DNA of 64,000 nt. Origin: Candidatus Methylomirabilota bacterium (GTDB lineage Bacteria; Methylomirabilota; Methylomirabilia; Rokubacteriales; CSP1-6). Made by a program: the position numbers. Below, piece by piece: positions 51,001 through 54,000 of this stretch. The DNA is taken from positions 15,597 to 79,596 of the forward strand of contig JBKPAK010000103.1 in the NCBI GenBank assembly GCA_046726415.1, in the 5' to 3' direction. The first letter of the stretch is position 1. Each line of letters starts with the position of its first letter.

Positions 51001-54000
51001 GTCGACTTCCGGCGGGACTACAGCTCGGGGGGCCACGCCTCCAAGGTCGCGCTCGAGCTGCGGAGATCGAGCATCTCCGGCAGACTCGGCGACTGCTGGG
51101 AGAGCTTCAGGTTGGTGATGCGGGTCATGCGCTGCACGATGAGGCGAATGCGCTCGACGGCGTCGAGGGTGGGACGAATGCGATCGGTCGCCGATTCGTC
51201 GATATGGTGGGCGATGATTTCGACGTTGCCCATGATGATGGCCAGCGGATTGTTGATCTCGTGGGCCGCGGCGCTGGCCAGACGCGCCACCGACCGCAGA
51301 GACTCCTCGCGGCGCTCGGCCTCTTCGGCGCGTTTGCGCTCGGTGATGTCCTCGTGCGCCACCACCGCGCGCATGCCTCCATCGCCCTCGAAGCGCGTGA
51401 TCCGCACGGCAAACCAGCGGCGGTCGGCGCCTTGCCACTGGGAGATTTCCCCGGAGAATTCCCGCCGCACTTTGCCGAGCACGTCGCCCATGCCCATCTC
51501 GATGGCGGCCACCTCACCGCCGCGCTCCGTCTTCCACACGTCGAGATACCTGCGTCCCACCGCGCCACCGGCCGACGCGTCATCGGGGGCGAAGAACCGC
51601 TGCCAGGCGGCGTTGGCGGCAACGATGTTGCCGTCGCGATCGATGATGGCGAGCTGCACGCTCAACGAATCGAGCGCTGACTGGAGCATGCTGTCCGACG
51701 GGGCGACCACGTCTCCGACCACGCCCCGCGCCGCGTTGAGGGCGGTGATGAGCACGCCCACCAGGATGAAAATGCCGATCCTGGCCACGTGCGGGAATCC
51801 CTGCTCCAGGGGGTAGAGCGGGTGGATGAACAGAAGCTCCACGCTCACGGTCGACAGCGCGGTGGCGGCCAGACCGGGACCCGCTCCGCCCGCCCACGCA
51901 CTCACCATGATGGCCGCCAGGAACAGCGGCGCGGCAACCGGCTTTAGGAGCGGCCACAGCGCGGCCGTCAGGAGGGCAGCCGTGGCGACGCTCGCCAGAG
52001 CGAGCAGGTAGGGCAGCAGCGAACTGTATGCGCCGCCACGCTGAGTATGCCAGGAGCGCCGACGGATGAGGGCGGCCGTCGCCAAGGCCAAGTCGGGCTT
52101 GAGCCAGCTGACCATGAGGGACGTCGGCGAGAATACCGGGACTACGGGAAGGACGCAATGGCCGCAGCCGGCTGTCCGCCGCACCACCACCACCAGGGTC
52201 GCACCCCACCCGACCATCAGTGTCGCACCCCACCCCACGAGCAAGTGTGTGAGTTCATGAGAGTCTGCCTTGGCATTCGATTTGCGGTGAGGGAGGGCAT
52301 GATGGGGAAGGCTCCCGTGCACACGCCCTCGAGATCGGAGACCTGGCGCGACGCATTCCCCGGAATCTCTGGCGACGTGATCGCAAGGCTGAAGGCCCGA
52401 GGCATCCGCTCCGTGGCCGGCGCGGTACGCGCCGTCCGTCTGGCGGGTGATCGCAGTGACCCGGTCGCGCGCGCTCTTCCCCAGATGCCGTTCGACAACG
52501 TCCTCGACCGTGAGGCCGCTCACCTGTTCTTGATGCTGCAGGTCGCCGCCGACACGCCGCCGAATCCCTCGTCGGGCGCGGCAAGACGGCCTCGCCGCCG
52601 CGCGCCCGAGTGCTGATCGCCAGCCACCAACCTCGCCATCGGGAAATCGAAGAGCGCCCCGGCTTTACCGGGGCGCTCTGAGCGTCTGGGGTGAGGGGGG
52701 ACATATCGGGGGCCCCCGTCACTTGACGCGCAGGTACATGGTCGAGGGACTCACCGCAGGCGGCGTGAAGGGCTAACCGTCCACGGGCGGTTTCACCCTG
52801 GGGGGCGGCGGCGTTGCCGTAGTTCCTGGTGGATTTTCAGGTCGTGAAGGCGCATCACGAACGCGACGGCGGCAGCGGCGAGCCCGAGAGCTACCACGAC
52901 CACGAGGGTAAAGTAGTCGGACGCATCCTGTAGGCCACGGGTTCCTAGATACGTCACGATGATGGCCGATATGAGAACCACGCCTAGCAGCAGTCCCCGG
53001 TAGAGCCAGCGCTCGACCAGAAGGCGCCCCAGCGCCTCGTCGTCCAGTTCGCGCCAGTCTCGATCGCGCATTGCGTTAGCCGGGATTTGCAGTGGGCACG
53101 CTTGGTGTATACCATCACGCCGACCGATCTTCGCTCGGGGGGTGAGTCATGGCGCCACTGTCCCTCGACCGACCGATCCGTGTGGACGTCATCACCTATG
53201 TCCCCACGCGCTTCAACCACTGAAAGCACTGCGAAGTGACCTGGCAGGTCATGGGCCTTCGCCAGAAAGTGCAGCGGGAACTCCTGGAGACCGGCCTACC
53301 CGAGGATCTCAAGCAGGAGTTCCACGCGCTCTCCGAATGGGCGGGGGCGCTACCCGCTAAGTTCGGCGACCGCGTGCGCGTGCGGCTGATCGACGCGGTG
53401 TCGCTCGAGGGTTTCGTCAAGTCGCTGCTCGGGCGCTTCTGGCGATACCCCGCTTTCTCGGTCCGCGGACACCGCTACGTCGGCTCCGACTTCTCGCGCG
53501 TCGACGACCTCATTTCCACCCAGCTCGCCAAGGGGGGGTGATGCCGACTCTTAACGGGCCAATAGTCCCCGTTCGGTCGAATTGCACGCGAAGGAGGAGG
53601 AATGAACACACTCCTGGCCGTCATCATCGGGGCGCTCACCGTGTACCTCGTGTACACGCGGTACGCCCGGCGAATCGATCGCAACGTGATCCAGTCCGAT
53701 CCCAAGCGGGCCACGCCGGCCACCCTCTACATGGACGGCGTCGACTTCATGCCCACCAACAAGGCCATTCTCTTCGGCTACCACTTCAAGTCGATCGCCG
53801 CCGCCGGCCCCATCGTGGGGGCCATCGTGGCGGCGTCGCTGTGGGGCTGGCTGCCGGCCCTGATCTGGCTCGTGCTCGGCGTGTCCTTCATCGGCTGGGC
53901 CAGCGACTACAGCGGCATCGTGATCTCGGTGCGCAACGACGGCAACAGCCTCTCGGGGGTCGCTCATCGTCTCGTCTCCCCCCGGTCGCGCACCATCCTG

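Follow-up and report, generated by a model that had tools for sequence, protein, structure and literature searches.

What is encoded by the small reading frame, broken by an in-frame TGA, that lies beside a CstA transporter gene in a Candidatus Methylomirabilota genome, and why should it lie there? The window analysed, a 64,000-nucleotide stretch of a single contig, carries on its forward strand at 53149..53541 a gene of Sec-type anatomy that runs from an ATG at 53149 to a stop TGA at 53539-53541 and encodes 130 amino acids (translation MAPLS...FNH-U-KHC...AKGG). In the locus translation this ATG is the first start downstream of an in-frame stop situated two codons before. The internal UGA, at 53221..53223 (+ strand; contig positions 68817-68819), occupies the first, N-terminal position of a CxxC redox motif, giving an active site H24-U25-K26-H27-C28. 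An earlier note on this DNA had described just such a 130-residue H-U-K-H-C protein, and the description is borne out both by the translation and by the alignment of relatives.

Related loci were gathered through a single-protein query, which yielded four loci, and a narrower Cys alignment searched against metagenomes. In all 28 distinct TGA-bearing relatives the TGA column corresponds to the first Cys of the CxxC motif, while 10 Cys forms from the same loci have TGC or TGT in that column. Cys orthologues at 60-67% identity (P0009, P0024, P0289, P0319, P0316, P0323, P0313 and P0318, all HCxHC) align with the Sec protein from end to end. Their presence in the protein databases contradicts the previous statement that every match of at least 57% identity carries the TGA. 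In a quick tree the Sec forms make up two separate clades, here A and B, with support of 99 and 96, so that at least two changes between Cys and Sec are needed. Tandem Cys/Sec and Sec/Sec copies also exist among the relatives.

Upstream of the TGA, variable sites at codon positions 1, 2 and 3 number 10, 6 and 16 in clade A and 8, 4 and 15 in clade B, an excess at third positions indicating that variation of the coding type extends 5' of the UGA. This agrees in direction with the 'frame test' reported before (1721/1851 against 612/3227 and 241/3493). DNA contigs from two soil runs span the UGA at 53221-53223, with no difference listed. Conserved coding sequence flanks, on either side, a UGA that aligns with Cys.

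The genome possesses the corresponding machinery: tRNA-Sec (71 bits, anticodon TCA), selB (374 bits), selA (592 bits) and selD (336 bits) all score above their curated cut-offs, and selD itself carries an in-frame TGA. Folding and comparison of the clades place a SECIS-like hairpin immediately 3' of the UGA, at 53231..53262 (+ strand), starting 16 nt after it (+16 to +32). The inner stem pairs 53236-53242 with 53246-53252 around an apical loop GGC (53243-53245), the first G of which is 23 nt from the U of the UGA, this U being counted as 1; the outer stem pairs 53231-53236 with 53257-53262. The hairpin sequences are GUGACCU-GGC-AGGUCAU in clade A and CGUUCCU-GGA-GGGAGCG in clade B, at equal distance from the UGA. 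Four of the seven hairpin base pairs are changed on both sides, although these compensatory changes represent a single split, between the two clades, and clade B was moved manually by 1 nt so that it fitted the structure. Paired cells amount to 88.1%, as against 67.2% for shuffles and 34-55% for slid controls. Across this interval the 28 Sec forms have a mean folding energy of -11.9 kcal/mol and the 10 Cys forms one of -8.1 kcal/mol, a difference for which the Mann-Whitney p of 1e-4 is overstated because related sequences are non-independent. The window's own hairpin folds no better than G+C-rich shuffles (z -0.38; mean z of the Sec forms -0.79), and the 7-bp stem is broken in some clade-A members, where an overlapping alternative hairpin may form. 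A similar hairpin of 8 bp, beginning 17 nt from the UGA, is present in selD of the same genome. An Rfam scan of 52500-54000 at E<=10 matched no SECIS family; its sole row, a weak nrdJ-RNA-like one on the - strand (52646-52726), has 24.1 bits against a cut-off of 40.3. We propose that the host SelA, SelB, SelD and tRNA-Sec would decode the UGA as Sec, aided by the hairpin 16 nt downstream.

Were the TGA a stop instead, the product would be a downstream ORF of ~96-101 amino acids, begun at GTG 53236 or at Met 35. The majority of database entries follow just this call, and the Rfam result is in keeping with it, but we consider it scarcely credible: the 24 codons upstream of the TGA have counterparts in full-length Cys orthologues and show mainly third-position variation, both clades keep the TGA in a single column, the genome holds the full Sec machinery, and the short product would lose the first strand along with the whole CxxC centre.

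The structure predicted for the Sec-containing protein identifies its kind. The AF2 model (pLDDT 86.3, pTM 0.73) has a thioredoxin/glutaredoxin-like fold, built successively of a strand, the CxxC where a helix begins, two extra helices, a strand, a helix, two strands and a final helix. The first helix (26-35) has U25 and C28 at its N-terminal end, and the conserved P101 is modelled before the third strand (102-105). The two extra helices come from a ~40-residue insertion (residues 38-75) that separates the CxxC helix from the second strand. In a VIA-align comparison with 48,161 chains the top 50 matches were all of thioredoxin fold (Z 8.0-10.1, rmsd 2.0-3.9, 73-93 residues), and the best Foldseek rows were almost all so (thioredoxins, PDI domains, glutaredoxin-like proteins and KaiB; probability 0.80-1.0, E ~0.02). 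A PDB profile search returned 1a8l, 1fo5, 4knd and 1nho at E 0.02-0.12. The thioredoxin-like fold, previously based on weak PDB matches, is hence now upheld by a model and a fold search. Neither a signal peptide nor a membrane helix was seen in the selenoprotein sequence. Taken with the evidence for Sec, the gene very probably encodes a genuine selenoprotein with a thioredoxin-type fold.

Conservation across the family bears on what the active site might do. In a 69-sequence alignment C25 (the U position), C28, P51, D82, S85, G88 and P101 are each conserved in at least 90%, but no column is strictly invariant, and both the late Gly and the His that precedes U lie below 90%. The invariance formerly attributed to H22, C/U23, C26, P49, D80, S83, G86, P99 and G110, residue numbers that are 2 lower than those used here, is accordingly lost. 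Sec forms span the motif range U-[KQPR]-[HR]-C, with His preceding U in 28 of 28 and a second His two residues after U in 26 of 28. The family as a whole includes HURRC, HUPHC, QCRHC, FCPPC and LCPSC, and the H-x-x-H flank, once taken for a family trait, is not family-wide, as HURRC and HUPHC illustrate.

These histidines invite a reading of the protein as a metal-binding protein or metallochaperone, in which His24, Sec25, His27 and Cys28 would serve, on a thioredoxin scaffold, as ligands of a metal or Fe-S cluster and no thiol-disulfide exchange would occur. The near-constant His residues of the Sec forms are consistent with it, as are two ArsA-type ATPase genes 0.7 kb downstream of cstA and the tie of CU and UxxC motifs in other selenoproteins to heavy metals, drawn in bioRxiv 10.1101/2022.07.06.499078. 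However, neither His reaches 90% in the 69 sequences, among which QCRHC, FCPPC, LCPSC and HURRC occur. C-x-H-C is moreover a standard redox-active motif, found in PDI (CGHC) and DsbA (CPHC), and a redox CxxC is usually partnered by a Pro ahead of the third strand, which here is nearly invariant. We therefore judge metal binding to be quite improbable and prefer a thiol-disulfide oxidoreductase of thioredoxin/glutaredoxin fold, in which Sec would replace the attacking N-terminal Cys of the CxxC motif (U-K-H-C).

In the databases the protein is largely invisible. It has no Pfam family, the sole row being FdhE_central at E 0.23, and it gave 0 NCBIfam rows at E<=1. The 157 database proteins that match it were confirmed: of the 120 listed, the majority have lengths of 94-115 aa and cover ~70-78% of the query, from which it follows that they begin after the TGA. 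Since all database entries found for Sec forms begin after the UGA, a conserved redox centre is missing from the annotations of a widespread soil lineage; the gene is real but unannotated. Cys forms bear the automatic name 'glutaredoxin family protein', and a natural Cys orthologue in the protein atlas falls in 'glutaredoxin family' clusters only. Relatives come closer to curated families than the window protein does. DUF1525 (PF07511) is passed by 4 of 53 (best 35.1 bits against a cut-off of 24.1), these being 38-46% identical to the window protein, and reaches E<=0.1 in 16 of 56; TIGR03757 is matched by 19 of 69, and a precomputed PF07511 label is attached to 13 of the 120 listed Cys homologues. 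Thioredoxin_3 (PF13192) is just passed by one relative of 53, with 24.9 against 24.8 bits. Given these four and one passes, the family borders curated families. The earlier note's 'new family with 0 Pfam/NCBIfam families' therefore holds for the window protein itself, but as a description of the family it goes too far.

A few longer matches were rejected. The seemingly 'fused' relatives P0173, P0166, P0140 and P0275 seem to owe their length to N-termini called too long in G+C-rich DNA and not to fusion, and the 1898-residue P0242 is a leucine-rich-repeat protein matched spuriously. No CstA fusion appeared among the 150 matches listed in a search without length limit. The family is unnamed in the deep-Sep paper, in the BSepDB text and in one BSepDB supplement. 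For selenoproteins in Methylomirabilota the literature searched yielded only the review PMC13188914, and CstA was not linked there or elsewhere in that literature with any thioredoxin-like or glutaredoxin-like protein.

The neighbourhood offers a clue to function. The CstA-family transporter gene (53602..55398, + strand; 598 aa; PF02554 E 1e-98) follows 60 nt downstream of the selenoprotein gene and is single-copy in the genome. Its product scores 331.9 bits with PF02554, against a cut-off of 27, but 146.5 bits with the equivalog model PRK15015 (the E. coli pyruvate symporter CstA), for which 1188 are needed. Within the phylum cstA adjoins the redoxin gene in 28 of 30 loci, and the other two are cut by contig ends on the side on which cstA would be expected; in metagenomes it lies directly downstream in 54 of the 65 Cys-form loci with room for it. 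Two gene orders are seen: in clade A, as in the metagenome Cys forms, the redoxin gene lies upstream of cstA, and in clade B downstream of it. The linkage to cstA claimed previously has thus not only stood but been extended to a reversed gene order and to Cys forms. Named metagenome hits among the Cys-form relatives are from Chloroflexota.

A promoter scan of the locus gave no promoter-like site, and between the selenoprotein gene and cstA there is no terminator-like site on the + strand, the sole one lying on the - strand inside cstA. The redoxin and cstA are probably co-transcribed as a two-gene module. In one soil metatranscriptome run short contigs cover parts of cstA only, which is uninformative for transcription of the selenoprotein gene.

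The divergent gene on the other side (52793..53071, - strand) encodes in its translation a membrane protein of 92 amino acids, for which two hydrophobic helices are predicted and no family scores over its cut-off. Regarded earlier as a constant companion of the locus, it was found by tblastn in 18 of 19 clade-A loci, the 19th being cut, but in none of 11 other phylum loci or 80 metagenome loci; its association is real within clade A, to which the window belongs, and does not extend beyond it.

Does the proximity to cstA reflect a shared function? The redoxin might alternatively be a general cytoplasmic one, a thioredoxin or glutaredoxin substitute, with its position owed to shared regulation, for example in starvation, or to inheritance as a block. 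The glutaredoxin names given automatically to Cys forms would suit such a protein. So would the HC[RK]HC Cys subclade, which has no cstA neighbour and accounts for 11 of the 65 metagenome loci with room; its neighbours vary and point to no function, being an ACT-domain protein, a beta-lactamase/NamZ fusion, an outer-membrane barrel and unknowns. The redoxin gene is also missing from 24 of the 62 cstA-bearing genomes of the phylum. Finally, a redoxin-specific Cys pair was sought in linked CstA proteins, two wrong-frame ORFs being set aside, and none was found: the one well-conserved Cys, C338 of a TIACG motif, is also kept in four CstA genes without a thioredoxin-like neighbour, so that no disulfide target specific to linked transporters is visible. 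Against this, the linkage outlives the change of gene order between clades A and B and holds where the CstA is only 37-56% identical to that of the window, the distance to cstA is small, in most cases 100-230 nt, and the patchy distribution of the redoxin tracks that of cstA, 38 of the 40 redoxin-bearing genomes among the phylum's 251 having both. A general role is in our estimation distinctly unlikely, and the redoxin is likely to be functionally tied to CstA.

The linkage suggests that the transporter needs a redox helper. We infer redox activity, a cytoplasmic location and action on CstA or its cargo and, on balance, favour a thiol/selenol oxidoreductase that acts in the cytoplasm and is devoted to the CstA system. 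As such a helper the redoxin would maintain the proper redox state of the transporter or of a partner bound to it; alternatively, it would reduce or capture the cargo on entry. Direct redox action of this sort, on transporter or cargo, is a possibility to which we give slightly less than even weight. Both Sec clades, together with the tandem copies and close Cys orthologues, provide a compact natural series for the effect of Sec on a C-x-H-C centre.

Among known systems, the best sequence-profile matches to solved structures are the MJ0307/MTH895 thioredoxins (TIGR00411, TIGR00412, PF13192; 1fo5, 1nho). They have in common with the window protein the four-stranded glutaredoxin-like fold, a first helix that opens with CxxC and a Pro that precedes the third strand, and TIGR00411 and TIGR00412 weakly match 15 and 11 of 69 family members, respectively. 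Table 1 of PMC13188914 already places selenoprotein forms in PF13192. The window protein nevertheless has no match to these models at E<=1, its domain is 130 aa long with a helical insertion rather than a compact ~80-85 aa, and its family has a C/U-x-H-C centre tied to cstA. The nearest curated sequence family is DUF1525 (PF07511)/TIGR03757. Here too the window protein gives no match at E<=1, and the locus none in a six-frame search at E<=0.1; the matches of relatives extend over profile positions 16-108 and in most cases begin beyond the CxxC region. Moreover, DUF1525 and TIGR03757 are named for integrating conjugative elements, whereas the present family occurs in chromosomal cstA modules.

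Two kinds of thioredoxin-like selenoprotein are comparable in their UxxC centre. HUIPC proteins (NF047660; Haft & Tolstoy 2025, as relayed in PMC13188914) are likewise thioredoxin-like with His before U and U-x-x-C, and the model weakly matches 3 of 69 relatives (best E 7e-4). It matches neither the window protein nor anything in the genome at E<=0.1, its cut-off being 105 bits, and both model score and motif, U-I-P-C against U-[KQPR]-[HR]-C, set the families apart. The UxxC glutaredoxin and thioredoxin selenoproteins (PF00462, PF00085), as listed in Table 1 of PMC13188914, are thioredoxin-fold redoxins with Sec for the attacking Cys. PF00462 matches one of 56 members, weakly (E 0.028), and the window family differs from both in its active-site flanks, its extra helical insertion and its dedicated transporter neighbour. 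The kind of protein is already known, and the novelty lies in its genomic context.

That context has a precedent in DUF466 (YbdD/YjiX, KCU-star; PF04328, NF033934), small cytoplasmic proteins with a two-residue thiol or selenol centre, occurring in Cys and Sec forms and encoded next to CstA-family transporters. They end in CC or CU and adjoin CstA paralogues, according to bioRxiv 10.1101/2022.07.06.499078 and PMC4607533, and bioRxiv 10.1101/072470 includes a report of their cofitness with cstA-like genes. According to PMC5847655, neither CstA nor YbdD is dispensable for pyruvate uptake in E. coli, and CstA/BtsT transporters need YbdD in a role given as unknown. The redoxin would play a part parallel to that of the CC/CU-tailed DUF466 with CstA/BtsT in E. 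coli. DUF466 occurs in one of the phylum's 251 genomes, one without the redoxin gene, and the redoxin in 40, the two never together; we do not adopt the displacement of DUF466 by the redoxin that this pattern might suggest, the support being weak, since hardly any genome of the phylum has DUF466 and 24 cstA genomes are without the redoxin.

A broader and rather doubtful extension, which we put forward as speculation, is that CstA-family transporters as a class need a small cytoplasmic dithiol or selenothiol partner, supplied at least twice from unrelated folds. The partners would be the CC/CU tail of DUF466 in Proteobacteria and others, and thioredoxin-like C/U-x-H-C proteins in Rokubacteria-type genomes and the Cys-form relatives. 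If so, the repeated upgrades from Cys to Sec would mean that a redox step limits transport, for instance if the cargo formed a covalent (seleno)sulfide intermediate or the carrier were gated by redox state, and the working of the widespread 'carbon starvation' transporter family would be redefined.

The parallel between the two proteins is one of genomic context only. PF04328 matches neither the window protein nor the genome, and sequence and fold are unrelated: DUF466 proteins are ~65-70 aa long with the redox pair at the extreme C-terminus, while in the window protein the pair is internal, at residues 25 and 28. A second, unrelated small Cys/Sec protein beside CstA is a testable hint of thiol/selenol chemistry in transport, and a thioredoxin fold is far easier to assay than DUF466.

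The redoxin gene, as we call the thioredoxin-like selenoprotein gene of the window, runs on the + strand from an ATG at 53149 to a TGA stop codon at 53539-53541 and contains a single further in-frame TGA at 53221-53223. Translation with the latter read as selenocysteine (Sec, U) yields a protein of 130 residues, MAPLSLDRPIRVDVITYVPTRFNH-U-KHCEVTWQ...AKGG, in which U25 and C28 form the predicted redox centre. The ATG is preceded by a G-rich, Shine-Dalgarno-like run and by an in-frame stop two codons upstream. On the same strand, 60 nt downstream of the redoxin gene, cstA starts at 53602 and encodes a CstA-family transporter of 598 residues (PF02554, E 1e-98). 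Divergently oriented on the other side (52793-53071, - strand) is a 92-aa gene with two hydrophobic stretches, for which no family was found in Pfam or NCBIfam.

The wider surroundings include a sensor-kinase-like ORF (51018-52523, - strand), lying upstream of the redoxin-cstA module and on the opposite strand, with DUF4118, PAS and HisKA matches and no match to an ATPase domain. Around 0.7 kb downstream of cstA are two adjacent ArsA/Get3-type ATPase genes (56141-58115, + strand; PF02374, E 8e-68 and 2e-63); the ORFs listed in between belong to no family. A weak nrdJ-RNA-like match (52646-52726, - strand; 24.1 bits, gathering score 40.3) covers a G+C-rich hairpin, GCGCCCCGG-UAAAG-CCGGGGCGC. 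It resembles a genuine nrdJ RNA less than a terminator-type hairpin separating the 92-aa gene from the histidine-kinase-like gene upstream. Two G-runs are shorter by one G in contigs from other soil runs: one at 53137, just 5' of the redoxin start codon, and the other at 53532, within the last redoxin codons. Loss of a G at 53532 would cause a frameshift that adds a few residues at the C-terminus, and may be the reason that the database entry P0004 ends ...AKGGDAGS.

The genome from which the window derives (7.6 Mb in 352 contigs, 98% complete) is equipped for Sec insertion: a single contig carries tRNA-Sec (71 bits; anticodon TCA according to ARAGORN), selB (374 bits) and selA (592 bits). Its selD (336 bits; 335.6 before rounding) has an in-frame TGA of its own, located in the motif SCAG-U-ASK (locus L142:1531; contig C223 of this genome, G000, at about 12024). 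Given this TGA and the 8-bp hairpin after it, SelD is a selenoprotein as well in this genome. Of 251 phylum genomes searched in six frames with a profile, 40 have the redoxin gene, and a TGA lies within 35 of the 49 matches. After removal of duplicates, the fetched loci comprised 38 sequences, 28 with TGA and 10 with Cys. In each of the 28 distinct Sec forms the TGA takes the place of the first Cys of the CxxC motif, giving HUKHC, HUQHC, HURRC or HUPHC. In the 16 codons 5' of the TGA, variable sites at the first, second and third codon positions number 10, 6 and 16 among the 20 distinct sequences of clade A, the window's own Sec clade, and 8, 4 and 15 among the seven of a second Sec clade, clade B. 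This concentration at third positions means that the reading frame runs on across the TGA. Most of those listed among the 157 matching database proteins are 94-115 residues long and start 3' of the TGA; beside the Sec machinery, the 28/28 correspondence with Cys and the continuous frame, which together bear out the earlier note's reading of this codon as Sec, a plain stop codon is nonetheless most improbable. The note's further statement that all matches of at least 57% identity carry the TGA did not hold: full-length Cys orthologues with H-C-x-H-C at the site are present in the protein databases at 60-67% identity (P0009, P0024, P0289, P0319, P0316, P0323, P0313 and P0318). The TGA itself is covered without a listed difference by contigs from two soil runs, although the run holding it best could be the source sample itself. 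RNA contigs, by contrast, left the redoxin gene uncovered.

Folding places a SECIS-like hairpin, GUGACCU-GGC-AGGUCAU, at 53236-53252 (+ strand), extended by an outer stem GCGAAG/CUUCGC, with the first loop G 23 nt from the U of UGA. The clade B counterpart, CGUUCCU-GGA-GGGAGCG, is one nucleotide further from the UGA, and the peptide encoded over the hairpin is ETFLEGAGVG there versus EVTWQVMG in clade A. With clade B offset by one base, an offset chosen by hand, 88.1% of cells are paired, compared with 67.2% after shuffling and 34-55% when the partners are slid; double-sided changes occur at four of the seven pairs, all arising from the single split between the two clades. Over the same interval the mean fold is -11.9 kcal/mol (z -0.79) for Sec forms versus -8.1 kcal/mol (z +0.65) for the 10 Cys forms, the sequences being related and hence non-independent. 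Taken alone, the window hairpin has a single-sequence z-score that falls short of significance in such G+C-rich DNA, and Rfam models gave no match to it in this region. As an internal control, selD, a known selenoprotein gene of the same genome, has the 8-bp hairpin CUCCUGGA-GAUC-UCCAGGAG starting 17 nt from its UGA. The 7-bp stem is broken in some clade A members, which may use an overlapping alternative, CCUGGC-AGGUC-GCCGGG. Over the hairpin, at 53226-53255 just 3' of the Sec codon, assembly contigs from runs X1 and X2 break off and overlap one another, and strain variation may be the cause.

In a quick maximum-likelihood analysis covering 110 distinct sequences the Sec forms fall into two separate clades, of 21 rows (support 99) and seven rows (support 96), and the starred branches between them therefore imply at least two Cys/Sec changes. 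Sequences of close Cys orthologues that were found only as proteins suggest further changes. Tandem copies occur in both clades: six clade B loci have a Cys copy with a Sec copy directly after it, and two clade A loci (L030 and L036, in genomes G199 and G171) have HUKHC and HURRC Sec copies in tandem upstream of cstA. In the latter pair Arg replaces His27 in the second copy, and the HURRC copy lies after or before the HUKHC copy. In one further locus, L050 (genome G019, contig C18, 162-2024), a second in-frame TGA falls within the domain (…GAE-U-ILGW…), and the neighbouring cstA, recovered as three tblastn pieces, contains a single in-frame TAA; decay of the locus or an assembly error may be the reason.

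An AF2 model of the redoxin, built with 69 sequences (pLDDT 86.3, pTM 0.73), contains a strand at 10-16, U25 and C28 at the start of a helix at 26-35, extra helices at 38-49 and 52-75, a strand at 76-82, a helix at 86-94, strands at 102-105 and 108-111, and a helix at 115-129. As modelled, this is the thioredoxin fold in its four-stranded, glutaredoxin-like form, to which a helical insertion has been added. The top 50 VIA-align matches among 48,161 chains are all thioredoxin-fold (Z 8.0-10.1, rmsd 2.0-3.9, 73-93 residues aligned), as are almost all the top Foldseek rows (probabilities 0.80-1.0; no row at E<=0.001), and a sequence profile search of the PDB gave 1a8l, 1fo5, 4knd and 1nho at E 0.02-0.12. 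The thioredoxin-like fold proposed in the earlier note is thus upheld by the model and the VIA-align matches. Its count of zero Pfam and NCBIfam families stands for the redoxin protein itself, which at E<=1 has no match in either apart from a chance-level FdhE_central row, and fails for the relatives: DUF1525 is matched at E<=0.1 by 16 of 56 and its cut-off passed by four of 53, while one of 53 passes that of Thioredoxin_3. Weak NCBIfam matches among 69 relatives are to TIGR03757 (19), the MJ0307 thioredoxin (15), MTH895 (11) and the HUIPC selenoprotein model (3); when the genome was searched in six frames, neither the DUF1525 nor the HUIPC model picked up the window locus. Cys forms are present in Chloroflexota, one bearing the source name 'Glutaredoxin', and the atlas clusters nearest a Cys orthologue are annotated 'glutaredoxin family protein' (Chloroflexota and Actinomycetota, no common Pfam family). 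The 224-residue Cys form P0186 has about 95 additional C-terminal residues, including a hydrophobic stretch, which could be a real added domain; other long entries look over-called.

In the thioredoxin fold the first residue of the CxxC motif is the attacking one, at which Sec is the better nucleophile and leaving group, and centres of the PDI and DsbA type typically have a His ahead of the second Cys. The positions conserved to at least 90% in the 69-sequence alignment are C25(U), C28, P51, D82, S85, G88 and P101. The H-U-x-H-C motif could alternatively be read as a metal-binding site, which we regard as distinctly unlikely, a reading weakened by the fact that its two His are not family-wide.

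The pairing with cstA claimed earlier is strong and extends to a second gene order and to metagenomic Cys forms. cstA adjoins the redoxin gene in 28 of 30 phylum loci, the other two ending at a contig edge on the expected side, and does so in two gene orders: 92-aa gene (divergent), redoxin gene, cstA in clade A, and cstA, Cys copy, Sec copy in clade B, whose CstA is just 37-43% identical to that of the window. Among the 251 phylum genomes cstA is present in 62, the redoxin gene in 40 and both in 38, the two exceptions being weak partial matches; the window's genome has a single cstA. In a metagenome scan with the Cys-form alignment, the best 80 of 417 loci were all Cys forms, and in 54 of the 65 among them having at least 700 nt downstream cstA came next on the same strand. 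The gap before it spans 69-584 nt and usually falls within 100-230 nt. One subclade, with HC[RK]HC and variable, uninformative neighbours, accounts for all 11 loci that lack cstA: L071, L077, L081-L083, L100, L107, L123, L126, L127 and L130. That a general redoxin merely travels with cstA is rather unlikely.

These results show a Sec-type gene whose product has a thioredoxin-type fold with a C/U-x-H-C centre, in a conserved two-gene module. A 2026 review of prokaryotic selenoproteomes describes many thioredoxin-fold UxxC selenoproteins, one family having a HUIPC motif, and 63 predicted selenoprotein genes in one Methylomirabilota genome (PMC13188914), so that a new thioredoxin-like selenoprotein is expected in kind in this phylum. 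The family could be one of the candidates left unnamed by Deng et al. 2026; it is unmentioned in the deep-Sep paper, the BSepDB text and one BSepDB supplement, and none of the papers covered by our literature search ties CstA to a protein resembling thioredoxin or glutaredoxin. The value of the redoxin lies in its conserved CstA pairing and in the parallel with DUF466 (PF04328), the YbdD/YjiX small proteins.

From that parallel in the literature we infer that the redoxin would act as a redox helper of its cognate CstA. CstA has just a single well-conserved Cys, C338, which is common to four CstAs lacking a redoxin neighbour; this speaks against a simple disulfide switch within the transporter molecule itself, and a role directed at the cargo, or exerted via a mixed (seleno)disulfide, is at least as likely. 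With the E. coli equivalog model this CstA scores 146 bits, far below the 1188-bit cut-off. DUF466 was not found in the window's genome. The sole match in the 251 phylum genomes (G141, contig C169, 77-1621) is in a genome without the thioredoxin-like gene, immediately 3' of a cstA of canonical type. In E. coli, constitutive pyruvate uptake is reported to require both CstA and YbdD, a DUF466 protein of 65 residues (PMC5847655), and cstA-like genes are cofit with DUF466 genes in fitness screens (bioRxiv 10.1101/072470). DUF466 proteins, as described in two further sources, adjoin CstA paralogues and have Cys-Cys at their C-terminus, replaced by Cys-Sec in Campylobacterales (bioRxiv 10.1101/2022.07.06.499078, PMC4607533). 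We regard the redoxin as an analogue of DUF466 and not as its relative.
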